From a virus (taxonomy: Duplodnaviria; Caudoviricetes), in IMG/VR virus record IMGVR_UViG_3300037851_000300, positions 1-62,343 of that record: a stretch of DNA of 62,343 nt. One strand, written 5' to 3'. The position numbers and the translations under genes were made by a program. Of the stretch, positions 3,840-60,622 are shown piece after piece (the first letter of the stretch is position 1; each line of letters opens with the position of its first letter). The notes under the pieces are model-generated. The model was given only the letters and a program-made list of their open reading frames with translations, searched no databases and was not told the origin of the DNA.

Positions 3840-4199
3840 GTGGACGAACACCTAAAAGGTAATAAGATAGTTATAGTGAAGCCCACAGAAGATGTGGGCT
3901 CTTTGGCATCAGATTCAGAAGATATTAAGTGGAAGATAGTGGACACGATGATAAGAGACTACACGAAGGTTCACCCTAAAGAGATGCTTGATTTGATAAA
4001 AGAGAATAAGGCCATAAAGGAATCCATAGAAAATGAATTCGCTAGGTCTAAGGGAGGCGGTCTTAGGTGGGGATTCAGACTTCCCCCTGGGCTGTTGAGA
4101 ATCATAGAGCGCAGGTTCCCAGATATATTTACTGATAAACAACAAATAACAAAATTTATGAAGCAGTACCCTGCACTTAGGGTCTGCGAAATCGTATGA
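3840..4199 (+). CDS. Hypothetical protein following MCP
   Basis: ORF with ATGA overlap to the next gene. Confidence 0.65.
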   Translation: MDEHLKGNKIVIVKPTEDVGSLASDSEDIKWKIVDTMIRDYTKVHPKEMLDLIKENKAIKESIENEFARSKGGGLRWGFRLPPGLLRIIERRFPDIFTDKQQITKFMKQYPALRVCEIV

Positions 4200-6553
4200 C
4201 AATATCATTGAACATGATAGTGAAAAACGAGGCCAGTAAGATAAAAGATGCGCTGGACTCCATACAGGAATACGTAGACAAGATTTACATAACAGACACT
4301 GGCTCTACGGACGCTACCAAGGAAGTTATAAAAAAACTTCCCTATTCTGGGATGATAGAGGTAAGCGATTTTAACCCCACCACCAATCCAGAGGCGTTTT
4401 TTGAAGATGGTAGTATCTATAATTTTGCAGCAGCTAGGGCGTTTAATTTCTCACAATCTAAAGAGGATTGGATAATTTGGATGGACGCCGACGATATCTA
4501 CGTTAATCCAAAGAATATAGGGTTGCTTATAAATGAAGCCAAGGTTAATAATATCTCTGGCTATTTTTTCGATTACTGGTATCAGATAAGCGAGGGTAAA
4601 CCTACGGAGCACCACCTAAAGTTGATGCTTACAAGGAATAACGGTCAGTTCGAATGGAAGGGTAATATCCACGAAGACCTGCTCCCTAAGAGCCCGATGA
4701 GATTGGCAAAGACACAGGCTGTCACCCGTGTGCACAAGCACGGGAAAGTAGACGAAGCCAGTAAGAATATAAGAAATATGAGGATATTGTCTCGCCAGCT
4801 ACAGGAGATGGGAGACAAGCCAGACCCCAGAACACTGTTCTATATGGGACGCTCATTGATGGTGGCTAGACAGAGCATAGAGGCTATTCCGATATTTGAG
4901 AAGTATATGGAGTTATCTGGATGGGCTGAGGAACTATATGAGGCTCGGTTCCTATTGGCAGAATGTTATGTAGATGCTGGGAGATTAGACGACGCCAGAA
5001 ATGCAGCCCTGAAGAACCTTGAGCTCAAGCCCAATTCCCCCGATGCATATCACCAGATGGCCAGGACATACTTAATGGAGCAAGAGTACCAAAAAGCACT
5101 ACAGTGGACTGCCAATGGTCTTAGGATAATTCCCCCAGAAGATGCGGTTACCACATTCCCACACAGATACACTACTCAGCCATATGCCACCCTAGCCACG
5201 ACATACCTTTATATGGGTAAGTTTGATGACGCTAAGATGGCTATAGATAAAGCCCTCTCCTACTCTCCTAAAGATGCTAAACTATTAGAGATACAGCAGT
5301 TAATATCATACCTGAGCGAAAGAAGAAGCGTAGCAGTAGCTTATGCGACTATCGCTGGATATATGAGGAAAAAGAAAGAAGAGTATAGAATCGCCACCCT
5401 GATAGGAAATGTCCCTGGAGACCTCAATGCTGACCCCATTATAGGTAAAATAAGATATGACTATTCTAAGCCCAAGACTTGGCCAGAGAAGAGTATCGCC
5501 ATACTAGCCTTCGGTACCGTAGAAGCATGGTCGCCCAAGAACGAGAAGGCTGGAGGCATAGGAGGTTCCGAAGAGGCTGTGCTTAACTTAAGCCGAGAAC
5601 TAAACAAACTAGGATATAGGGTTACCGTTTATACCAACACTGGTAGTGATGATGGAGTGTACGATGGAGTGGTGTGGAAGATGTTTACAGAGTTTAATGG
5701 CAAAGACAAATTCGACACTATAGTCCTATGGAGGGCTAACGGATTACTTGAATATGAGATAGATGCCAACGTAAAGCTGTTTGACCTACATGACGTCCCG
5801 ATGTTTGGGGACTGGAATGAAGAGAAAAGCAACAAGGTTAATAAGCTGATGGTCAAATCAGAATATCACAAGAGTCTGTTCCCAGAGGTTAAACCAGAGA
5901 AGATAGTAATTTCCACCAATGGAATAAACTCTACCCAATTTAAGAAGAAGATAGACAGGGAAGAATTCAGGTGTTTTTATTCGTCTGCTATAGATAGAGG
6001 ACTAGATATCCTACTGGATATGTGGCCCAAGATTAAAGAGAAGGTTCCCAAGGCTACACTACATATCTACTATGGATTCCAGACCTTTAAGGCATTAAAT
6101 AAGCACAACCCAGAGAGGATGAGGTATGTGAATAACATCGAGAAGAAGATGAACGATATGGCCAGTCTGGGGGTCGTCTATCACGGAAGGGTGTCTCACG
6201 ATGAATTAGCTGATGAGATGCTCAAATCAGATGTTTGGCTATATCCAACCTATTTCCCAGAGATATCTTGTATAACTGCGATGAAGGCTCAGGCAGCTGG
6301 AGCGATACCCGTGTGCACAGACTATGCCGCCCTTGATGAGACGGTTCAGTATGGAAAGAAAATAGGTGGGGATATTTACATAGAAGAGATTCAGGCGGAG
6401 TTCATCAACGCTGCAGTCGAGGTGTTGAACAATTCCAAGTTCAAGAAGGAACAGAGGAAACTAATGATGCCATGGGCTCAGGATAAGTTCTCTTGGACAA
6501 ACGTAGCAAAAGAATGGGATAAAACTATCAATGACGAGCATAATAGAGGATAG
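4196..6553 (+). CDS. Multidomain glycosyltransferase: GT2 (GT-A) + TPR + GT4-like (GT-B)
   Basis: ISLNMIVKNE, DTGSTD, NFAAAR, WMDADD, IHE; central TPR helices; GGSE, YSSAIDRGL, EISCITAMKAQAAG. Confidence 0.9.
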   Translation: MTISLNMIVKNEASKIKDALDSIQEYVDKIYITDTGSTDATKEVIKKLPYSGMIEVSDFNPTTNPEAFFEDGSIYNFAAARAFNFSQSKEDWIIWMDADDIYVNPKNIGLLINEAKVNNISGYFFDYWYQISEGKPTEHHLKLMLTRNNGQFEWKGNIHEDLLPKSPMRLAKTQAVTRVHKHGKVDEASKNIRNMRILSRQLQEMGDKPDPRTLFYMGRSLMVARQSIEAIPIFEKYMELSGWAEELYEARFLLAECYVDAGRLDDARNAALKNLELKPNSPDAYHQMARTYLMEQEYQKALQWTANGLRIIPPEDAVTTFPHRYTTQPYATLATTYLYMGKFDDAKMAIDKALSYSPKDAKLLEIQQLISYLSERRSVAVAYATIAGYMRKKKEEYRIATLIGNVPGDLNADPIIGKIRYDYSKPKTWPEKSIAILAFGTVEAWSPKNEKAGGIGGSEEAVLNLSRELNKLGYRVTVYTNTGSDDGVYDGVVWKMFTEFNGKDKFDTIVLWRANGLLEYEIDANVKLFDLHDVPMFGDWNEEKSNKVNKLMVKSEYHKSLFPEVKPEKIVISTNGINSTQFKKKIDREEFRCFYSSAIDRGLDILLDMWPKIKEKVPKATLHIYYGFQTFKALNKHNPERMRYVNNIEKKMNDMASLGVVYHGRVSHDELADEMLKSDVWLYPTYFPEISCITAMKAQAAGAIPVCTDYAALDETVQYGKKIGGDIYIEEIQAEFINAAVEVLNNSKFKKEQRKLMMPWAQDKFSWTNVAKEWDKTINDEHNRG

Positions 6554-6737
6554 AGGCAGAGAGAAGACTGGCGAGGTGAGCAAGATGTGCCCACATTGTG
6601 GCTTCTACCAGAAACACGAGATATACGAGCATAAGAAGAAGTTTAAGGCTTATGTTTATGTAGAGGTGGTGTATGTATGTATGGCTTGTGGCGCATCTGT
6701 CGTAACGGCTCCCAAGGCATACAAAATTGAATCATGA
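6531..6737 (+). CDS. Small zinc-ribbon protein
   Basis: CPHC...CMAC. Confidence 0.6.
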   Translation: MTSIIEDRGREKTGEVSKMCPHCGFYQKHEIYEHKKKFKAYVYVEVVYVCMACGASVVTAPKAYKIES

Positions 6738-7627
6738 AAATTGCATTCGTATGGGAGGATATCTACAGATATCCAGATGGTTGGAAAGATGGACTATGGT
6801 TGGCCCTTAAACACATTGAAAAGGATGCTGAGGTAAAATATTTTAGCCCAACTCAGATTGTAGAGATAGGAGAATACAGCCCAGATATTATGATTGTTTG
6901 GGGAGCCATGGCTGGATACTACATGCCACAGTTAAAAGAACTCCCGTTTAAGAAGGCATTATGCTTTGGTGGTGGCCCTATAGACGCACAGGGATGCGCT
7001 GGATGGGACTTAGTATTTACTGAGAGTAAATCAGATGAAGATATATTGTCCTGGCTACGAGTTCCATACTTAAGAGCCTTTGGTATAAATGAAGAGATAT
7101 TCAAGCCCCAGAGATTAAAGAAGGAATATTCTGGGATGATAGCTGGAACCTTTGCTCTTTGGAAAAGACATGATTTATTCGCTCAAGCCACTGGCGGGGG
7201 TGGAATAGCCATAGGGATAGTACAGAAGCACGAGATAGAGTGCTATAATGTTTGCAAGACATATGGCAACACTGTCTTAGAAGAGCAACCTAGAGAGAAG
7301 ATAGCCGAAATTATTAACAAGTCACATACGGTTGTGAATACAGCCAATTTGTGGGGCGGAGGGCAGAGACTTACCTTAGAGGCTATGGCTTGTAATGTCC
7401 CTCCGATAGTTATGAAGGATAGCCCCAAGAACTGTGAGTTCTCCCACGAATCTGGGATAGGAGTCATTGTAGAACCTAGTGTAGAACAAATAAGGTGGGC
7501 TATAGGCTCACTTAGGGGAAAACATTGTAATGGAAGAGAGTACATTGAATCAAAATGGACCAGTAGACACTATGCCGACGCCCTCAAGAAAGGAATCGAG
7601 CTTGTTCTTGGCCCCACACAACGATGA
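6734..7627 (+). CDS. GT4-like (GT-B) glycosyltransferase
   Basis: WKRHDLF and GGQRLTLEAMACNVP motifs. Confidence 0.85.
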   Translation: MKIAFVWEDIYRYPDGWKDGLWLALKHIEKDAEVKYFSPTQIVEIGEYSPDIMIVWGAMAGYYMPQLKELPFKKALCFGGGPIDAQGCAGWDLVFTESKSDEDILSWLRVPYLRAFGINEEIFKPQRLKKEYSGMIAGTFALWKRHDLFAQATGGGGIAIGIVQKHEIECYNVCKTYGNTVLEEQPREKIAEIINKSHTVVNTANLWGGGQRLTLEAMACNVPPIVMKDSPKNCEFSHESGIGVIVEPSVEQIRWAIGSLRGKHCNGREYIESKWTSRHYADALKKGIELVLGPTQR

Positions 7628-8063
7628 CGGGTGCCTATTTAGAGGTATTATCATACAGTGATTTAACCCTCTTATTGTTATTGTTACTGATAGTTGGGTT
7701 CAGTATATCCGTGGGGATGGCATTACAGCGGAAGATAGAGGAGAAGAATCAAGAAGAGCGATGTGGTTGCTCGGAGCGGAGTGTAGATTCCCTGGGCTCA
7801 GGGACGACACGCTTAAGGGAGAGAGTCTCTACCGTGCCCTCATTGCCTACAAAGACCAGTACGGTACGATTTATTTACCCGAGTGATAATGGTGGTATGG
7901 GCCCCACGACCTCGTCAATGAATTGGGGCCAAGCATCTGGTCAAGGGCGATACGATGCACAACCCATACAAGAACTGACCTCCGTGCTGAAGAAGAAGCC
8001 CTCGCGTGTTACAAAAGCTAAATCAAAATCAATCTCCCGCACTTCGAGGCGGACAAAAATTAA
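7572..8063 (+). pseudogene. Decayed PIG-L/LmbE-family deacetylase
   Basis: One frame reads LFLAPHNDD..VIVTDS..R.EESRRAM.LLG..HDLV..ALACYKS with stops at 7659, 7884, 7887, 8019. Confidence 0.8.
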
Positions 8064-8076
8064 AAAACCACGATGA
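7624..8076 (+). CDS. Orphan ORF with N-terminal TM helix and basic tail, in the +1 frame of the PIG-L relic
   Basis: 150 open codons with ATGA overlaps on both neighbours. Confidence 0.5.
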   Translation: MTGAYLEVLSYSDLTLLLLLLLIVGFSISVGMALQRKIEEKNQEERCGCSERSVDSLGSGTTRLRERVSTVPSLPTKTSTVRFIYPSDNGGMGPTTSSMNWGQASGQGRYDAQPIQELTSVLKKKPSRVTKAKSKSISRTSRRTKIKKPR

Positions 8077-8516
8077 AGTTAAATCTTGGGTGTGGAGAAA
8101 ATAAGAAGGCTGGTTGGATAAATATAGATTATGTTCCAGAAGTCAACCCAGACCTTATCCTTGACCTAAATAACACCAAACACAATAGACTGCCATATAA
8201 AGATAACGAGATAGAGGAATTAAATGCCGTGGACGTACTTGAGCATATAGAGAATATAATCCCACTAATGAACGAACTACATAGGGTCTTGGTGGTTGGA
8301 GGCGTGATTCACATAGAAGTCCCGCTTGCTGGTACAGTTGATTTCTATAAAGACCCCACTCATGTACGCTCATTTGTGCCAGAGACTTTTAAATATTTTG
8401 CAGAATGGTGTCCTAGGTTTTATGGCATAAAACAATGGAAGATATTAGAGATGAGGTGGACCAAGGGAGGAGATAACCAAAACCGTATCTGGGTGACAAT
8501 GACACCACTAAAATGA
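8073..8516 (+). CDS. Class I SAM-dependent methyltransferase
   Basis: KLNLGCG, VLEHI, LHRVL..GG, DPTH. Confidence 0.88.
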   Translation: MKLNLGCGENKKAGWINIDYVPEVNPDLILDLNNTKHNRLPYKDNEIEELNAVDVLEHIENIIPLMNELHRVLVVGGVIHIEVPLAGTVDFYKDPTHVRSFVPETFKYFAEWCPRFYGIKQWKILEMRWTKGGDNQNRIWVTMTPLK

Positions 8517-9238
8517 AGTTTAGTTCGATAACAAATGTAATGAATGAAGAGGATATCCTATCTGGGTGTCTTAGTCTGCTTGATGTAGATTTTAAGATAG
8601 TGGTAATATCTGACACCACTCATTCTGGTCTATCTTATGTGCCAGATAATAGTGAGCAGATAGCCATAGATAGTGGCGCAATGGTTATTAGGGTAAAGAA
8701 CGTCGACGAGATAGGTATGAGAAATCTTGGCCTCGGTATGTCACTGGCATTGGGGGCTGATTATGCATTTATAGTAGACGCAGATGAGTACTATCCTAGA
8801 AAAACGCTTGAGAATTATAAGAAGTTTATAGAGCAAAATCCCTATTTATCATACAGAGCGAAAATGCTTGTTTCGTTTAGGCAACCCAACTGGGTGGTCC
8901 CTTGCCCCACCGACCATGGGAGTATCGTGGCTATTAGAACAGACCAAAGATTCAATCAACTTAGGTCGCATGGTGACAGCATATCGATTCCAGATGAACT
9001 CGGCACAATCTATCATATATCCTATGCTCGTTCAGCAAAGAAGATAGAGGAAAAGATGAAAAGTTTTTCCCATGCCAGTGAAGTATTGCCGAATTGGTTT
9101 AATGAAGTGTTCCTCCCTGCCACGCTAGAATCACACAACGTTCACCCAACATCCCCCTCTGTATGGCCAGACATAAAAGTGATAGAATTACCAGAAGAAG
9201 TTAAAGAAAAAATACCAAAGAACCTATGGCAAAAATAA
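8513..9238 (+). CDS. GT2-like glycosyltransferase
   Basis: RNLGL...FIVDADE DxD motif, HISYAR. Confidence 0.8.
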   Translation: MKFSSITNVMNEEDILSGCLSLLDVDFKIVVISDTTHSGLSYVPDNSEQIAIDSGAMVIRVKNVDEIGMRNLGLGMSLALGADYAFIVDADEYYPRKTLENYKKFIEQNPYLSYRAKMLVSFRQPNWVVPCPTDHGSIVAIRTDQRFNQLRSHGDSISIPDELGTIYHISYARSAKKIEEKMKSFSHASEVLPNWFNEVFLPATLESHNVHPTSPSVWPDIKVIELPEEVKEKIPKNLWQK

Positions 9239-9900
9239 GCGTAATAGTACCAATTTATGCGTTAGATGAAGAAATCATATCCTATGCAGTAAAATGCCTA
9301 GACTCTATAGGCGACCATGAGATTATTGTTGTAGATAATGGAGGGGCTGAAGAGGTTCTAAAACGCTCCAAGGCGAAGGTATCTATCACGATGTCACTCA
9401 ATGACAATGTGGGCTATGGTATGGCTATCAATATGGGTATGTCGGTTGCTACGGGAGACATACTTGTTGCCTTAAATGACGACGTAATCCTACCAGTGGG
9501 CTGGGAAAGGTTCACCGACATTCTCGTAGACCCCATGGTGGGAGTGGTAAGACCAGGAGAGCTGTCAGAACAGCCAGGGGGCTTGGTGGAAGACCATGCA
9601 TGGTATCATGGATTCTGTTGGGCTATAACCAGAGCTACCTATGAGAGGTTGAGCACTAAGAAGAATGGGCTTATGGACCCAAGGTTTGGACTCGGTTATT
9701 TTGAGGATTTAGACCTTTGGCACCGCATGAGGAAGCGACACCTCAAGATGATGAAAGACTTCAGGGTGAAGGTGTTCCATTATGGAGGATTAACCATACA
9801 CAAAATGGACCATTCTGAATTGCAAAAAATCAATGAACAAAAGTTCATAGAAAAACACAATCTCCCCAACTGGAAAGAAATATACTACCCATGGGAATAA
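9226..9900 (+). CDS. GT2 glycosyltransferase
   Basis: ISVIVP, VVDNG, NVGYG, LNDDV, GYFEDLD. Confidence 0.9.
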   Translation: MAKISVIVPIYALDEEIISYAVKCLDSIGDHEIIVVDNGGAEEVLKRSKAKVSITMSLNDNVGYGMAINMGMSVATGDILVALNDDVILPVGWERFTDILVDPMVGVVRPGELSEQPGGLVEDHAWYHGFCWAITRATYERLSTKKNGLMDPRFGLGYFEDLDLWHRMRKRHLKMMKDFRVKVFHYGGLTIHKMDHSELQKINEQKFIEKHNLPNWKEIYYPWE

Positions 9901-10685
9901 GCGTAATTAACGTCACAAAAAGATACGGAGGTATAGACATTTTATACAACAACATCCGTAAGCAAACATTTAAGGATGTGGAGGTTATAATTGCGGACGA
10001 ATTATACGCTGACCGTCAGCAAGAAGTGAAGGAATATTTCAAGGGGATACCGCTTAAACACGTCCCCACGCGCCCAAAACGGCCTCAGGACGTGTGGAAC
10101 CTAGCAAAGGCGTATAATGACGCCCTAAAGCAGGTAGAGGGTGAATTAGTGGTATCTATAGATGATTTCATATGGACACCCAATAACGCCCTGCAGAGGT
10201 TTTGGGAGGTATATCAGCAGAAGGGGTTGTGCCTTATCACTGGAGTAGGTAACAAAGCTGGATACCCAGAAATAGTAAATCCCACTGGTAAGATAACTAT
10301 TTTTAAGCAGGATTATCGCTCAAAACCACAGGGAGTGATAGAAAGAGATAACAGGATAGATGGTAGAACCAACGTAGAGGAAGTAAATCATAGTTTCTTT
10401 GAACTCGCCTACTCTGCCTTCCCAATGGACATAGCGAGAGGGATAGGTGGATTTGATGAAGAGACTGACCAGTTCTATTGTGGTCAAGATAGGAATTTCG
10501 CCCTTAGGTGTCACTTACAGGGGTTCCCAGTCTATATGGATAGGGGCAATGAGAATATTGGACTATTCCATCAAGGATTCCAGCCGAGACCATCAGATTG
10601 GGAAGAAAGACACTATAACAAGAATCCACGCGCCACTATGGACATAATAGAGGGTAAAAGACCCATAATACAAAAGTGGCTATAA
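9891..10685 (+). CDS. GT2 glycosyltransferase
   Basis: KQTFKDVEVIIAD, SIDDF, IGGFDE, QDRNFALR. Confidence 0.88.
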   Translation: MGISVINVTKRYGGIDILYNNIRKQTFKDVEVIIADELYADRQQEVKEYFKGIPLKHVPTRPKRPQDVWNLAKAYNDALKQVEGELVVSIDDFIWTPNNALQRFWEVYQQKGLCLITGVGNKAGYPEIVNPTGKITIFKQDYRSKPQGVIERDNRIDGRTNVEEVNHSFFELAYSAFPMDIARGIGGFDEETDQFYCGQDRNFALRCHLQGFPVYMDRGNENIGLFHQGFQPRPSDWEERHYNKNPRATMDIIEGKRPIIQKWL

Positions 10686-10699
10686 ACATTGTTTAACAT

Positions 10700-10867
10700 A
10701 TGCGACTTGCTATAATTGAAACAAATGATAAGGCTCAGGTCCTCCTAGAACTATCAGAGGATGAGTTTATCAAGAAACTCAAGAAATACTTTGAAGAAAC
10801 TGGCTCAATAGAGGATGCATTCAGGCTGGTGGCCAAAGAACTCAAAGATTTAACCATCAAACTTTAA
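10700..10867 (+). CDS. Small helical protein (55 aa), similar to 16133-16297
   Basis: Own translation MRLAIIETNDKAQVLLELSEDEF...; TAATG overlap with the next gene. Confidence 0.65.
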   Translation: MRLAIIETNDKAQVLLELSEDEFIKKLKKYFEETGSIEDAFRLVAKELKDLTIKL

Positions 10868-12456
10868 TGCCTGAAAGAAAAACTCCCATTATTGACCGCA
10901 ATGAGCACGAAGAGACGGGCGGTGTCTCTGTGCGTAAGGTGGGTAATTATGTATGGAATCCCAACTCTTTGGGCTGGGAAAGACAAACCGCCACAGCCGC
11001 TGCAGGAGATGGGGCTATAATAGATGGAGAGAACACATCCATAAGAGCCAGTGTTTCGTCTCTGGCGTCCTCTAACCCGCTAAATGTTTCCATAGTAGAT
11101 GGGAGCGGAGCACAAATAACCACATTCGGAGGAGGTTGGGAAAATATGGTTGATACTGGCAACTCAACCACTACACCTTTAGGTTCGTCTGGCACATTTG
11201 TTGGTACTGGGGTGGACTGCATAGAATATGCAAGTGTGGCCGTAACTTTAACATCAGACAAGAGTTCCACTACAGATGGTATGAAGTTCCAGTTTTCTAC
11301 GGATAACACTAACTGGGACGACACATATTCATTTGACTTCGTGGGTGGGACAACCAGAAGATTCCAGTTCCCAGTAACAGCAAGATATTTTAGGGTTAAT
11401 TTTGAGAACACTAATTCTGCTCAAACATATTTTAGGGTTCAAACTATACTACACAAGACGGACCTCCTGACGTCCATACATAGGATGGACGCGGATATAA
11501 AACCAGACAGGTCTGCGACCCTAGTTAAGGCTGGCTTAATTGCACAGATAAATGGGACAGGAGACTTTACTCCAATACAGGCTAACGCAGCTGGTGTTCT
11601 AAAGGTTGGAGGCTCTGTGTCCCTAGATGCTGGTACAAATAACATAGGAGATGTAGATGTCCTGACGATGCCAACAGTGACAGTCACGTCTACGAATCTT
11701 GATGTAAGGGATTTACTATTCGCCTCCGATAAAGTAGATGTATCTGGCTCATCTATATTTGCCTCCCAGGCGGGTACATGGAATGTAAATGTCTCTAATT
11801 CTTCTATCTATGCCATACAATCTGGTACTTGGGCTGTTACTGCTAATGCGGGTACCAACCTGGATACGTCTGGGTTAGCTCTAGAAACTGGGGGTAATTT
11901 AGCTACAATAGCTGGAAAAGATTTTGCCACGCAAACTACCCTAGCTGCTATAAATACAAAACTTGTAACTGGTACAGATATAGGCGATGTTACTATCAAT
12001 AATGCCTCGGGCGCAGCTGCGGTTAATATTCAGGATGGAGGCAATACCATAACCGTAGACGGGACAGTTAATGCTAATGCTACGCTGGCCGCTGAAACAA
12101 CTAAGGTTATAGGGACGGTGAATATTGCCGCCGCACAGACTATAGCCACCACCAACGCTGGCACATTTGCAGTTCAGCAAACCACTTATTCATCTTCATC
12201 TGTAACACAAGTATCCTCCTCGGCAAGTAGCGTGCAGTTATTAGCTTCTACGGCTGGAAGAAGGGGTGCATATTTCTTTAATGATTCAACCTCGGTAGCT
12301 TATATTAAACTAGGGACAACGGCGGCCACAAACTCATATACCGTTAAAATGGCAGCTGGTTCGTTCTATGAACTACCGTATCCATGCTATACTGGTAGAA
12401 TAGATTGTATTTGGGCATCGGCTAACGGCGTAATGGCAATAACTGAAATAACATAA
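10867..12456 (+). CDS. Ser/Thr-rich virion fibre/decoration protein (ERKTP paralogue 1)
   Basis: Beta-rich modular sequence sharing blocks with 16311-17333. Confidence 0.65.
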   Translation: MPERKTPIIDRNEHEETGGVSVRKVGNYVWNPNSLGWERQTATAAAGDGAIIDGENTSIRASVSSLASSNPLNVSIVDGSGAQITTFGGGWENMVDTGNSTTTPLGSSGTFVGTGVDCIEYASVAVTLTSDKSSTTDGMKFQFSTDNTNWDDTYSFDFVGGTTRRFQFPVTARYFRVNFENTNSAQTYFRVQTILHKTDLLTSIHRMDADIKPDRSATLVKAGLIAQINGTGDFTPIQANAAGVLKVGGSVSLDAGTNNIGDVDVLTMPTVTVTSTNLDVRDLLFASDKVDVSGSSIFASQAGTWNVNVSNSSIYAIQSGTWAVTANAGTNLDTSGLALETGGNLATIAGKDFATQTTLAAINTKLVTGTDIGDVTINNASGAAAVNIQDGGNTITVDGTVNANATLAAETTKVIGTVNIAAAQTIATTNAGTFAVQQTTYSSSSVTQVSSSASSVQLLASTAGRRGAYFFNDSTSVAYIKLGTTAATNSYTVKMAAGSFYELPYPCYTGRIDCIWASANGVMAITEIT

Positions 12457-14000
12457 TGGCATACTATCCACCAGAGCTTAATACATCTCAGTATGTCGCT
12501 TCTGTGCAGGGCACTGCTGGTAATATAACTTTTTCCAATTCTAATGGAATAACTTTTGGGGGAAATAATTCCACTATTACTGCCAGCCACAATGCCCTTA
12601 CTACAGCGGCACAATCTAATCATAGTCACGGGAACCCCACGCTCAACCTTACCAATCTCTCTGGCACGACAGGTTCTAATTCTGCTGGATTTACGCTGTC
12701 ATTGTCAGCGGCAGCTCCTGGCGGTGGGGGACTTACAAACATCAATGTTTCCGCGGGAACTACGAGCAACAACCTGTCAGCGATGACGTTCTCGAACTCG
12801 AACGGAATCTCGTTTGGGCTTAACGCTTCTACAATCACCGCTTCACACAACGCACTTACAACTGCGGCACAGTCTGACCACTCGCACGGGAACCCCACAC
12901 TAGCGCTAACCAACCTTACGGGGACAACTGCTAGTGCTTCTAACGGTCTTACGATATCACTTTCCGCTGCACCTCCAGGAGCGGGTGGTGGGTTCGCTGC
13001 CCAGGGTTCGGGAACATATACCCAGAATACTGGCACGATTCAATTCGCTAATTCGAACGGAATCACCTTTGGACTCTCTACGAACCAGATGACTGCAAGC
13101 CATAACGGTCTTACGACCGCCGCGCAGTCAGACCACTCACATGGGAATCCTACGCTAGCATTGACAAATCTCACTGGCACAACGGCCTCTGCGTCGAATG
13201 GGTTTACTCTTTCGTTGAGCGCAGCAGCCCCTGGCGCAGGTGCGGCACCAGTTGTTTCGCGTTATCCGACAGCGGATATGTACTACGGAAATATCTCGTC
13301 CGCACCGCTCTATGCGGGAACATCAGGCTCAACAGGAGGCTCGACACAGTTCACCGTATCAGGTCGTGTGTGGTCTGAGGCTATCCCGTTTGACATCCAC
13401 TACAAGGACCTAGATATGGCTGCAACAATGTCGGCTACAGCATCTGGGACTGGTTCAGCGTCCATTTACCATGCCTTTGGGATTTACACGCTCAATGGGA
13501 ACACAGTCCTTAGCCGTGTAAGCTCCTTCTACCACGGGCAGCATATGAGCCAGAACAGTATTACGGCTCGTACCCACTATGCATGGTGGGGTTCAAACAG
13601 TGCGGCGAATACAACAACAGCTAACGGCAATATCTCAGCATCATGGTCTGGGTTCAGAAGGTTTGACCTACATGATTCTGATGCAACGCTTTCAGCTGGG
13701 AACTACTTCTTCGCACACTTTATGTACCAGAGGTCGTCAGCTGCGAACGTATTCTCCCAAGCGGGTATCGCCCATCGCACTGCCTCGCAAACTTCTGGCT
13801 TCAGTTACTTCGGGACTAATACCTTCGTACAGCCATTTGGCACACGTGGACTTGGCATCTTTTCTACGACAACTAATACAAATACCATCCAACTTGGCAT
13901 ACAGATGCCAGCAAGTATCGCTACATCTGCCATCACGGGAACTGGTGGTTCGTCGCAGAACCTTCAGCCATTCTTCTGGATGTATAGAAACGCAACATGA
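12456..14000 (+). CDS. Repeat-containing fibre-like protein
   Basis: Three ~67-aa FSNSNGITFG...HSHGNPTL...SLSAAAPG repeats plus a C-terminal globular domain. Confidence 0.7.
   Translation: MAYYPPELNTSQYVASVQGTAGNITFSNSNGITFGGNNSTITASHNALTTAAQSNHSHGNPTLNLTNLSGTTGSNSAGFTLSLSAAAPGGGGLTNINVSAGTTSNNLSAMTFSNSNGISFGLNASTITASHNALTTAAQSDHSHGNPTLALTNLTGTTASASNGLTISLSAAPPGAGGGFAAQGSGTYTQNTGTIQFANSNGITFGLSTNQMTASHNGLTTAAQSDHSHGNPTLALTNLTGTTASASNGFTLSLSAAAPGAGAAPVVSRYPTADMYYGNISSAPLYAGTSGSTGGSTQFTVSGRVWSEAIPFDIHYKDLDMAATMSATASGTGSASIYHAFGIYTLNGNTVLSRVSSFYHGQHMSQNSITARTHYAWWGSNSAANTTTANGNISASWSGFRRFDLHDSDATLSAGNYFFAHFMYQRSSAANVFSQAGIAHRTASQTSGFSYFGTNTFVQPFGTRGLGIFSTTTNTNTIQLGIQMPASIATSAITGTGGSSQNLQPFFWMYRNAT
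12522..13235 (+). repeat. Three coding repeats of ~200 bp
   Basis: Near-identical peptide units with diverged synonymous sites. Confidence 0.9.
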
Positions 14001-14725
14001 TAAAACCGCAACTTGTTATCCAAGACTTTGGGGGTGTCAAGAACAAAGATTTGAAATCCACATCTGCAGCACTCTTGAAGGGTGGTAGTTGGAAGAGGCA
14101 ACGTATTGTGGTAATTCTCCCCGCTGGGGAGAGTATCCCAGCCAAGGTGGCTCTTTCACATTGGAATCTTGTGTTCCCCCCCAACAATGGGGTGGTAAGG
14201 ATTCTTGCGCAGGGGATGGAGGTGGGAGACGCCTACTCGGTTGCCATCGAGCAGATTATAGCCCATCCAGAATTCTCAAATTGGGAATACATTCTGACCA
14301 TTGAGCATGATAATATGCCACCACAGGATGGGGTTATTAAACTTATAGAACAGATGGAGAATCATCCAGAACTGGACTGTATCGGAGGCCTCTACTTCAC
14401 GAAAGGAGAGGGTGGCGTGGCCCAGATATGGGGTGACCCAAAAGACCCAGTGTTGAATTTTAGGCCACAGCCACCAGACCCGAATGGTGGGTTGGTGGAG
14501 TGTTGTGGAACTGGGATGGGGTTCAATCTTTGGAGAATGAAAATGTTCAAAGATGACAGACTCAGGAAACCATGGTTCAAAACCCTGAACGGCAAGAATG
14601 GAGATGGGGTAGGGACACAAGACTTGTATTTTTGGGGAGATGCAAGAAAGTATGGTTATAGGTGTGCTGTGGATTGTGGAGTAAAGGTTGGCCATTATGA
14701 TAATATAAACGACATAACATGGTAA
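13997..14725 (+). CDS. GT-A-fold glycosyltransferase-like protein
   Basis: ILTIEHDN, IGGLYFTK, GTGMGF, TQDLYF, VKVGH. Confidence 0.8.
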   Translation: MIKPQLVIQDFGGVKNKDLKSTSAALLKGGSWKRQRIVVILPAGESIPAKVALSHWNLVFPPNNGVVRILAQGMEVGDAYSVAIEQIIAHPEFSNWEYILTIEHDNMPPQDGVIKLIEQMENHPELDCIGGLYFTKGEGGVAQIWGDPKDPVLNFRPQPPDPNGGLVECCGTGMGFNLWRMKMFKDDRLRKPWFKTLNGKNGDGVGTQDLYFWGDARKYGYRCAVDCGVKVGHYDNINDITW

Positions 14726-59215: not shown

Positions 59216-60622
59216 TTAGGTTATTACCTCCCAATCTATGCCACCGACTACGGTGTTGCGCATAGGCCCGGAGCGTTTATATTTTTTATTCGTATCAACT
59301 TCAAATAACATTCGCATTATAAGCATATCGGAATAATCCGGTGAACGTCCGATGTTTTCCTTAATCATATCCTTTGGAACAAGGTCAAGCTTACCGTCTT
59401 TGTCCGGGTCTTTGCGCTTAATCTGTTCAAGCTCCTGAATTATCTTCTCTCTCAATGCTATGTCATCTGTCAAAACTGCCACTTCACGGTTATTCACTTT
59501 CTCTGCAAACAGATAAGCACATTGAGCTTTGAGGTTCGCATAGTTCTGCGGAATATATACTTTCTTGCCGGCCTGCTTCTCTTCCTGCTTGAATGGAGAA
59601 GCATTTGCTATGAAGCCCCTTACGCCTCCGCCAAGCATATCTATTACGCCTCCGCCTACACCACCCTCATCAATGGCAATTCTTGAATATGGAACGCGGT
59701 GATCCGTTGAAATCTGCCTTATGTCCTCCGCCGTAATGTTCAACCCTTGCTTCTCTTTGGTTATGATGGGCGAGCAAACGAAACCAGACCAAACACCGAT
59801 TGTTGTCTTGTCCTTACCGAACCGGGCAATATCGCCGGTCATATACTTCGGGCCGTCATCTACGACATTATGAAATATATCCATTATGGCATCATACGGC
59901 ATCAATGCGCTCTTATCGTTATCGTATTCCCAATTACCACGCAACAACCTTTCCTTCTGAACAGTATCGGTCAAAGATAGCAAAGCATCCTTATACCCGG
60001 ATTCACCAAACAGGTTATCATCCACAAGAGATTGTATGAACGCTCTGTTCTCCGGTAACTTACCTTCCCGGAACAGTTTATAAAATAAAAGATACTGCCA
60101 GTTCTTTGAGGGGTTACCGGTTACGAGTATCTTGCGCATTAGTCCATAGCGGTCGTTCAGATGCCTGCCCACTCTGGTTTTGAGAATATCATAAGCTCCG
60201 AAATGCACATCTCCACCTTCTTCTATCCAGCCCACCGTGTATTCAGAAGATCCGAAGCGTTCATATAGCGGATCGGAAGGCATATATCCTACATCAAGCA
60301 AATCTATCCGGCTCTTATTCTTGAACTCAATGTAATTGTATTTACCATCCAAGCGCCATTCCGATTGAGGCACTTCCATAGCTGTCATTACCTTATTGAA
60401 AGTAATGAATGTCGTCTGCATTATTTTCTTTAGTTCATCGCGAGCTATAAAACTCTTAATGCCCGGATAGGCCAAAGACAGAATCGATTGCCAAATACAA
60501 CCGAGAAAGGTTTTACCCCCTCCAGCACCACCGCCAAAGAGAAGCTCATTCGTCTTGTTGTCCCGCAGTAACTCCAACGCTTGCTGTTGCTTCGGAGTTA
60601 CTTCTATCCTTAATGTTGCCAT
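59216..60622 (-). CDS. terL: Terminase large subunit
   Basis: GGGAGGGKT Walker A, WIEEG, TGNP, GDIARFGKD, GRSPDYSD. Confidence 0.95.
   Translation of the reverse strand: MATLRIEVTPKQQQALELLRDNKTNELLFGGGAGGGKTFLGCIWQSILSLAYPGIKSFIARDELKKIMQTTFITFNKVMTAMEVPQSEWRLDGKYNYIEFKNKSRIDLLDVGYMPSDPLYERFGSSEYTVGWIEEGGDVHFGAYDILKTRVGRHLNDRYGLMRKILVTGNPSKNWQYLLFYKLFREGKLPENRAFIQSLVDDNLFGESGYKDALLSLTDTVQKERLLRGNWEYDNDKSALMPYDAIMDIFHNVVDDGPKYMTGDIARFGKDKTTIGVWSGFVCSPIITKEKQGLNITAEDIRQISTDHRVPYSRIAIDEGGVGGGVIDMLGGGVRGFIANASPFKQEEKQAGKKVYIPQNYANLKAQCAYLFAEKVNNREVAVLTDDIALREKIIQELEQIKRKDPDKDGKLDLVPKDMIKENIGRSPDYSDMLIMRMLFEVDTNKKYKRSGPMRNTVVGGIDWEVIT

Follow-up and report, generated by a model that had tools for sequence, protein, structure and literature searches.

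A dead LmbE/PIG-L deacetylase gene in a phage glycosylation operon and the open +1 frame that may have taken its place

When two reading frames share the space between two genes of a phage operon, one of them spelling a known enzyme interrupted by stop codons and the other one open from end to end, what has become of the enzyme and is the open frame a gene? This question is raised by positions 7572-8076 of a freshwater phage contig of 62,343 bases (estimated 77% complete, 43% guanine-cytosine (GC) content, i.e., 0.433), the whole of which is called the window in the following. The segment lies between the genes of a GT1-type glycosyltransferase and a methyltransferase. In phase with position 7572 it reads as an LmbE/PIG-L-type deacetylase with internal stops, while the frame shifted by one nucleotide (+1) holds an open reading frame (ORF) of 150 codons that overlaps both neighbours. 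The sequence comparisons reported below indicate that the PIG-L frame is almost certainly a dead homologue. With the enzyme frame dead, the +1 ORF is probably a translated and selected new gene that also preserves the coupling of the operon.

The stop-containing frame

An earlier note on this DNA, made from its letters alone, had read the frame in phase with 7572 ('...SSLFLAPHNDDGCLFRGIIIQ*FNPLIVIVTDS...') as a PIG-L/LmbE deacetylase that carries an HxDD motif, has four internal stops and shows no frameshift. We translated this frame with X at the stop codons (query P0001) and compared it by phmmer with 1.84 billion representative proteins. The identification is strongly borne out, with 193 matches at E<=1e-3, 53 of them at E<=1e-10, and a best match of E 6.7e-20 at 40% identity. 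This best match covers query residues 6-142 in one unbroken stretch, and others reach residue 162-165, i.e., they extend across every stop. Most of the matched proteins are about 175-195 residues long and are aligned from their own residue 2-4 (query 10-11) to near their own ends (query 160-165). From these alignments, the frame with the stops belongs at full length to a phage subfamily of short (about 180 residues) LmbE/PIG-L proteins. The single-stretch alignments also confirm the absence of a frameshift; relative to its homologues, the frame shows an in-frame deletion of about 16 residues after residue 133, near position 7970.

The Pfam family PF02585 was found in all 21 aligned homologues. 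On the frame itself its match is weak and stays below the gathering threshold (E 0.0081, 17.1 bits for a cut-off of 28.2, covering profile positions 1-100 of 129), with 13.8 bits for the genome-search version of the match. Relatives in a 90%-clustered collection carry the name 'LmbE family N-acetylglucosaminyl deacetylase' (one source), and the profile of the alignment matches the solved LmbE-like structures 1uan (TT1542), 2ixd (BcZBP) and 6p2t (BshB). The subfamily is common in phages, where we found 53 viral loci. Fused forms of the short deacetylase exist as well: the representative search returned matches of 345-689 residues with the PIG-L domain at either end, and in three loci (L006, L007 and L037; matches at 3001-35xx) the domain lies inside a longer ORF of 449-562 codons.

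The HxDD motif reported earlier is found as H16-N17-D18-D19 (Table 1), and the invariant downstream histidine H112 is kept, too. We take these to be the metal-binding and catalytic residues of the LmbE/PIG-L family. The residue after the two aspartates is G where E is usual, and the family's 'HHD' has become 'PHD' in the dead frame. That is, the frame resembles LmbE/PIG-L deacetylases (PF02585) in its full-length alignment and its retained H-x-D-D and histidine; unlike these enzymes, it has five stops, no start and losses among near-invariant residues.

The stop codons are TGA 7659, the adjacent TGA 7884 and TAA 7887, TAA 8019 and TAA 8061. The earlier count of four thus holds for the number of sites and has to be raised to five for the number of codons, given the 7884/7887 pair. 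The stops at 7659 and 8019 are each one first-position change away from a sense codon (CGA/AGA and CAA, respectively). At the start position of the homologues, no ATG was found in the PIG-L frame, and no credible start codon is present. Near-invariant residues have been lost at R30, G108W, Y129C, Y132H, K140E, Q150 and E166K. Among the columns that are conserved in at least 70% of 119 homologues (n=42), the window keeps 74% compared to 89 +/- 7% in the homologues, one of which (1/119) is lower. Overall identity to the family is near normal (34.5% vs. 36.9 +/- 2.2%, with 16/119 homologues lower), so that the death of the enzyme would be recent on the scale of the family's divergence.

The earlier note had named sequencing errors at the stops as a finding that would undo its reading. 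The contig of a second assembler (23,847 nucleotides, depth 11.3; probable source run) is identical to the window over 7300-8400 and thus has the same stops; it stems from the same sample and tests the assembly, not the biology. In addition, a variant strain described below carries one more stop.

Table 1. Coordinates of the two frames, their landmarks and the flanking genes in the window.
Feature	Position	Strand	Basis or remark
Dead LmbE/PIG-L-type deacetylase frame (almost certainly dead), in phase with 7572	7596..8072	+	phmmer, alignment, PF02585 in homologues
H-N-D-D codons CAC AAC GAT GAC (H16-N17-D18-D19)	7617..7628	+	H16, D18 and D19 invariant in alignment
TGA, PIG-L frame	7659..7661	+	aligns to near-invariant Arg (R30)
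TGA TAA pair, PIG-L frame	7884..7889	+	at 'I-Q' before the family GGNxHHD motif (here WWYGPHD)
TAA, PIG-L frame	8019..8021	+	near-invariant Gln Q150, 97% of 119 homologues
TAA, PIG-L frame	8061..8063	+	mostly Lys/Arg in family; about 8 residues before homologues' own ends
Candidate new ORF, +1 frame, 150 codons	7624..8076	+	ORF list
Predicted transmembrane helix, +1 ORF residues 14-34, LTLLLLLLLIVGFSISVGMAL	7663..7725	+	Kyte-Doolittle
Stretch spanned by minor variant contig	7595..7773	+	179 nucleotides, depth 2.7, 12 differences, no gaps
GT1-type glycosyltransferase gene	6734..7627	+	Pfam Glycos_transf_1, E 8.6e-6
S-adenosylmethionine (SAM)-dependent methyltransferase gene	8073..8516	+	Pfam Methyltransf_11, E 6.8e-5

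The open +1 frame, its variant and its predicted product

The open frame of 150 codons with an ATGA at both neighbours is present as the earlier note had described it. Its ATG overlaps the TGA of the GT1 gene (7625-7627) as ATGA 7624-7627, and its own TGA (8074-8076) overlaps the methyltransferase ATG at 8073 as ATGA 8073-8076. The 5' ATGA lies within GAT GAC, the two codons for the enzyme's invariant Asp-Asp, and provides the GT1 stop and the +1 start at once. Upstream of ATG 7624 and of ATG 8073, no Shine-Dalgarno (SD)-like motif is found.

The key evidence on this frame comes from the minor variant contig. We list ten of its 12 differences, the other two being too close to the contig ends. 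Nine of these ten fall on +1 third positions, which are first positions of the PIG-L frame; the probability of at least nine of ten in one given phase is 3.6e-4, and 1.1e-3 for any phase. In the +1 frame, the nine changed codons comprise seven synonymous changes plus E7D and V30I. When read in the PIG-L frame, all nine changed codons are nonsynonymous and one is a new stop (CAG to TAG at 7701, the sixth). The third frame likewise shows nine nonsynonymous codons out of nine. Seven of the ten differences lie within the predicted helix (7663..7725), where six are synonymous in +1 and two jointly cause the V>I exchange. Six consecutive codons of the hydrophobic segment (G-F-S-I-S-V/I) are changed at the wobble base with the peptide preserved.

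Over the 50 codons compared, the Nei-Gojobori method gives for the +1 frame a synonymous rate (dS) of 0.27 and a nonsynonymous rate (dN) of 0.022, i.e., an omega of 0.08, while the PIG-L frame has no synonymous and nine nonsynonymous changes. Since sequencing error cannot produce a period-3 pattern, we read the variant as a diverged relative that conserves the +1 protein and not the PIG-L frame. That is, +1 codons 1-50 appear to be under purifying selection between two co-occurring strains. The variant shows no listed difference at 7659 and thus appears to share the first nonsense codon; its G at 7674 agrees with the family-consensus Val codon.

We also compared the decayed PIG-L codons with ancestral codons inferred from the family consensus. 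At 17 positions the window deviates from the consensus or has a stop: 11 of these are explained by a single first-position change and four by a single second-position change of the PIG-L frame, and two need two changes. Ten of the 11 first-position changes are synonymous in +1, if CGA and not AGA is taken as the ancestor at 7659. Such a pattern is expected if the DNA has evolved under +1 constraint since the death of the enzyme. The comparison agrees with the earlier proposal that the stops at 7659 and 8019, if they came from CGA and CAA, are synonymous changes in the +1 frame.

How surprising is an open frame of this length? Stops number 11 in the third frame of the segment and 14, 5 and 7 in the three reverse frames. 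In 43 ORFs of the window, off-frame stops occur with a frequency of 0.073 (+1) and 0.083 (+2) per codon; from the former, a probability of about 1e-5 follows for 150 stop-free +1 codons. When the PIG-L frame was randomized with synonymous codons according to phage codon usage, 0 out of 20,000 sequences were stop-free in +1 (11.2 +/- 2.3 stops, minimum 2). If the present codons are kept and just their order is shuffled, 0.7% of the sequences are stop-free.

The +1 frames of the homologues were checked in 35 of the 53 viral loci, leaving out 18 with matches shorter than about 100 residues. All 35 genes are intact in frame and their +1 frames carry 1 to 28 stops. The sole nearly open one (1 stop) has a GC content of 0.68, while the 11 loci with GC <=0.41 have 12-28 stops (window segment: 0.476). 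The earlier note had considered that the +1 frame might be equally open in intact homologues; with at least 12 stops at GC <=0.41, this is not what we see.

The product encoded by the +1 ORF would have a short acidic N-terminus, one very hydrophobic segment and a tail of 114 residues with 24 K+R, 10 D+E and 29 S+T, i.e., a Ser/Thr-rich and basic tail that is probably disordered. The transmembrane helix noticed earlier is confirmed as a hydrophobic helix, with a best 19-residue Kyte-Doolittle window of 2.73 (residues 16-34). In the old frame, the codons of this helix specify a hydrophobic beta-strand of the enzyme, 'PLIVIVTDSWVQY': 'LLLLLLLIVGFSISVGMAL' is what 'PLIVIVTDSWVQYIRGDGI' becomes when T at codon position 2 moves to position 1 (Leu, Phe, Ser). 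Following the positive-inside rule, which we assume to hold here, the tail would face the cytoplasm.

A protein search with the +1 ORF among 5.8 billion proteins, including shorter ones, matched only the ORF itself. No relatives were found in viral, metagenome and genome contigs, and no family in Pfam, PHROG or NCBIfam. Among RNA runs, none was listed as containing the stretch, which speaks neither for nor against expression. The Atlas model of the product has a predicted local distance difference test (pLDDT) value of 0.51 and a predicted template modelling (pTM) score of 0.21. Leads from the Atlas were dropped, as their feature scores (0.76-0.77) are below the level that shuffled proteins often reach and the structures have TM scores <0.45. 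We also dropped a holin-like role (single helix plus charged tail), for which there is no support and which does not suit a gene located among glycosylation genes.

Weighing a new gene against a bridge, an accident and a living enzyme

We favor the following course of events. An LmbE/PIG-L-type sugar deacetylase gene would once have stood between the GT1-type glycosyltransferase and the methyltransferase. Today, ribosomes leaving GT1 at TGA 7625-7627 would reinitiate at ATG 7624, which overlaps this stop, read the +1 frame as far as TGA 8074-8076 and from there enter the methyltransferase gene at its overlapping ATG 8073. Such termination-reinitiation is suggested by the architecture together with the near-absence of SD sites. 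The product would be a small single-pass protein, presumably located in the membrane, with a helix derived from a shifted beta-strand and a basic, disordered tail. At the same time the +1 frame would keep the downstream genes coupled, and judging from the operon architecture this coupling is likely a co-benefit of the ORF. The two frames are not functional side by side today, as the old one is dead. As to the role of the protein, we guess at an accessory of the glycosylation module that is anchored in the membrane, or at some other small phage membrane protein. A fuller account, which we put forward tentatively, is that of a gene birth in progress: a membrane protein may be arising from the +1 frame of a Rossmann-type enzyme gene, whose slot was taken over after the parent's death, with coupling and a function of its own both acting.

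Several observations weigh against a selected new gene. The selection signal stems from one contig of 179 nucleotides and depth 2.7 of the same sample. Its two unlisted end differences may bear on ATG 7624, and the comparative data span codons 1-50 of the 150 +1 codons. The ORF is without homologue, its model is of low confidence and mostly disordered, and neither an SD motif nor a promoter precedes it (the promoter scan was at shuffle level). A codon model does not separate the two frames: the ORF scores -4.201 under either label ('coding' or '+1 of a coding frame'), while in the control true genes differ by 0.31 +/- 0.09 and all 219 of 219 windows pick the true frame. Its first-position G content still resembles that of the PIG-L frame.

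The window furthermore contains a second +1 open run of 150 codons, at the 3' end of the gene 12456..14000, which is apparently due to chance; measured on the window's own genes, such runs thus occur at a rate of about 1 in 43 and not 1e-5. Finally, with about 11 expected +1 stops there is no obvious stepwise route to an open frame. On the other hand, a period of true overlap is feasible, because the codon geometry allows PIG-L-synonymous changes to remove all +1 stops.

These points bear on the alternatives to different degrees. The +1 frame might be kept free of stops just for the passage of ribosomes from GT1 to the methyltransferase, with a functionless peptide. This fits the ATGA at both ends within an overlapping chain that is nearly without SD motifs, as well as an intact PIG-L gene in another phage contig that has 4-nucleotide overlaps on both sides. 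An orphan product that is poorly folded, of odd composition and not gene-like in its codon usage is also what such a bridge would leave. Yet it predicts an omega near 1, and the variant has about 0.08, with six consecutive helix codons changed at the wobble base alone. The earlier note had left open whether a gene was born or a frame was kept open for coupling; the variant's omega over the first 50 codons favors a selected protein over a frame that serves coupling only. We thus regard a pure bridge as unlikely for the ORF as a whole, while it may still hold for the tail, given that the variant spans just the first third.

A recently dead pseudogene whose +1 frame happens to be open, untranslated and awaiting deletion seems very improbable to us. 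It can draw on the other 150-codon off-frame run of the window, which is ordinary by the codon model, and on the stop-free codon-order shuffles. None of the synonymous randomizations gave an open frame, though, and the homologues of similar GC have at least 12 +1 stops. The frame is moreover bounded exactly by the ATGA junctions, in contrast to the run in 12456..14000, which neither begins nor ends on gene junctions and whose host frame is alive; there, the codon model gives the 3' region to the main frame (-4.065 vs. -4.336). The period-3 pattern of the variant fits the +1 frame (P about 1e-3), which a neutral pseudogene would not.

Least credible of all, and close to negligible in our view, is that the deacetylase is still made, be it that the stops are sequencing or assembly errors or that recoding or a suppressor tRNA allows readthrough. 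A TAA=Gln code is superficially suggested, since TAA accounts for three of the five stops and two or three of these align to Gln. A living enzyme conflicts, however, with the identical second assembly and with the additional TAG of the variant. The in-frame stops are of two kinds, TGA as well as TAA, and the residues opposite the TGA sites are not the same (R and I/L). Most neighbouring genes terminate at TAA or TGA, and translation by table 11 gives uninterrupted ORFs of up to 1,797 codons. No tRNA gene, and hence no suppressor, was found in the 62,343 bases of the window, and near-invariant residues are lost in addition to the stops.

A selected new gene with preserved coupling, our preferred reading, has partial counterparts among known systems. 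Lambda Rz1 within Rz and phiX174 E within D are small phage membrane proteins encoded in the +1 frame of another gene. In both pairs the host gene remains intact and neither product is dispensable; their known function is lysis. Unlike Rz1 and E, the host frame in the window is a pseudogene and lies in a glycosylation operon, with no lysis role indicated.

Viral overprinting, i.e., the de novo origin of an ORF in an alternative frame of an older gene, is well described (Pavesi 2021, PMC8227390; Sabath et al. 2012, PMC3494269; Pavesi et al. 2013, PMC3744397). As in these accounts, an orphan ORF of narrow phylogenetic distribution occupies the +1 frame of DNA that is widely homologous in its other frame. 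Like overprinted products, that of the ORF is small, biased in composition and, except for one helix, predicted to be disordered, and its codon usage is further from that of the genome than the codon usage of established genes. What differs from viral overprinting as portrayed there is that the ancestral frame of the window is dead and the new ORF fills the whole slot from stop to start, which makes it a frame replacement with no overlap today. A term search of PMC8227390, and of this paper alone, returned no discussion of a loss of the ancestral frame; 'lost' there concerns the new ORF.

For gut bacteria, out-of-frame matches have been reported for 1.34% of species-specific orphans (Vakirlis et al. 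2024, PMC11293555). What the window has in common with these cases is an orphan protein encoded by DNA that resembles a known family when read in another frame. While the cases in PMC11293555 are mostly inferred from paralogous or distant copies, the window has the old and the new frame in situ, with unambiguous polarity and a within-sample selection signal. The case fits known overprinting and alternative-frame orphans, but as an unusual variant. Keyword searches of open-access text did not return the combination of a dead parent in situ, a junction-to-junction frame, a start cut from a catalytic motif and coupling, which cannot show that it is unpublished.

De novo genes are mostly hard to prove, as doubt attaches to their parent, their polarity or the selection on them; in the window, the sequence itself offers all three. 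A recognizable enzyme family with intact relatives in many phages supplies the parent, which is dead in the window, and the new frame is biased towards synonymous changes between two strains. A possible mechanism of stop protection suggests itself, in that the +1 frame would be the sole ribosome path between two coupled genes without ribosome-binding sites. If true, the demands of coupling in a packed phage operon can keep an alternative frame free of stops until a gene forms, and a membrane helix can arise by the shifted reading of a beta-strand. The locus is also a warning for annotation: gene callers will annotate the orphan ORF and overlook the pseudogene, whereas homology searches will report the pseudogene and discard the ORF.

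Relatives of the slot and the surrounding operon

Close relatives of the locus are scarce. By DNA, the phage GenBank collection gave just a short match to the upstream fusion glycosyltransferase, and tblastn of the read-through protein gave no match there. Using the methyltransferase, no closer relatives were found in viral contigs. The nearest PIG-L relatives are 37-45% identical, such that dN/dS relative to intact homologues would be saturated.

A 57%-GC phage contig (L011:2303-4456) encodes a GT2 glycosyltransferase, an intact PIG-L protein and two methyltransferases with a 4-nucleotide overlap at every junction. Since the intact PIG-L gene overlaps both of its neighbours by 4 nucleotides, the slot would normally be a link in a coupled chain. 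Methyltransferase homologues were detected by tblastn in 11 of the 58 loci searched, all 11 being PIG-L loci (fetched flanks), and the recurring pair of deacetylase and methyltransferase has the look of a mobile unit of two genes within the glycosylation clusters of phages.

Two loci, L051 and L052, show the gene order of the window: a GT2-TPR-GT4 fusion, GT1 and three GT2 genes. Between GT1 and the first GT2, they contain just the first 31 codons of a deacetylase ('MLKLFLSPHNDDESLFGAYTLMREKPLVVVV'), fused in frame to the glycosyltransferase. In three further loci (L002, L003, L057), nothing lies between GT1 and the next gene. A metagenome search by glycosyltransferase gave three loci: L057 and L059 are without insert, and the match statistics of L058 are those of L057. 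The deacetylase hence seems dispensable and, as far as sequences can tell, to have been lost at least twice in the group, by deletion in L051/L052 and by nonsense mutation with frame take-over in the window. As a speculation, a 13-nucleotide deletion at the junction, seen relative to L051, would remove the GT1 stop and the deacetylase start together. Such a deletion is compatible with the alignment and would account for the longer GT1 gene of the window, too. This indel is not trustworthy, because the GT1 proteins of the window and L051 are just about 26% identical.

The chimeric ORF itself (L051:2992-3732, with L052 alike) joins the PIG-L N-terminus to a homologue of the window's GT2 gene 8513..9238 (37% identity), where the PIG-L piece replaces the N-terminal strand and helix of the glycosyltransferase.

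Glycosyltransferase genes and the methyltransferase form a block of nine consecutive genes on the plus strand (3840-10685), all eight junctions of which overlap (4, 23, 4, 4, 4, 4, 13 and 10 nucleotides). An SD-like motif is located upstream of just 3 of the 30 plus-strand starts in the first 26 kb. This nearly SD-free chain of overlaps suggests a host with weak SD use and heavy translational coupling. The last five codons of the GT1 gene (GPTQR) and its TGA fall within the 5' end of the dead deacetylase sequence; compared to its relatives in L002, L003 and L057, it ends five codons (about 5 residues) later, i.e., within the dead gene.

For the window in general, few ORFs match known phage families in the annotation, which has a weak match to a terminase large subunit (59216-60619) and a weak match to a galactose-binding domain (10867-12453). 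Scans of the window for promoters and terminators gave counts at shuffle level and are thus uninformative. The gene 12456-14000 (514 codons) is overlapped at its 3' end by a 169-codon ORF in the +1 frame (13579-14088, plus strand), which includes the second stop-free run of 150 codons; in this part, the main-frame product has many Ser, Thr, Gly, Ala and Asn residues. This ORF is probably a chance open frame, which tempers chance estimates for long off-frame ORFs in this DNA.

Upstream of GT1, a 68-codon ORF (6531-6737, plus strand) has two CxxC pairs and weak zinc-ribbon matches (E about 0.004-0.02). It overlaps the end of the GT2-TPR-GT4 fusion gene (785 codons) by 23 nucleotides and the next gene by ATGA. 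Its counterpart is not seen in L002 and L003, where the fusion gene directly abuts GT1. Segment 7572-8076 has a GC content of 0.476 compared to 0.433 for the window, which fits a later acquisition of the deacetylase-methyltransferase unit.

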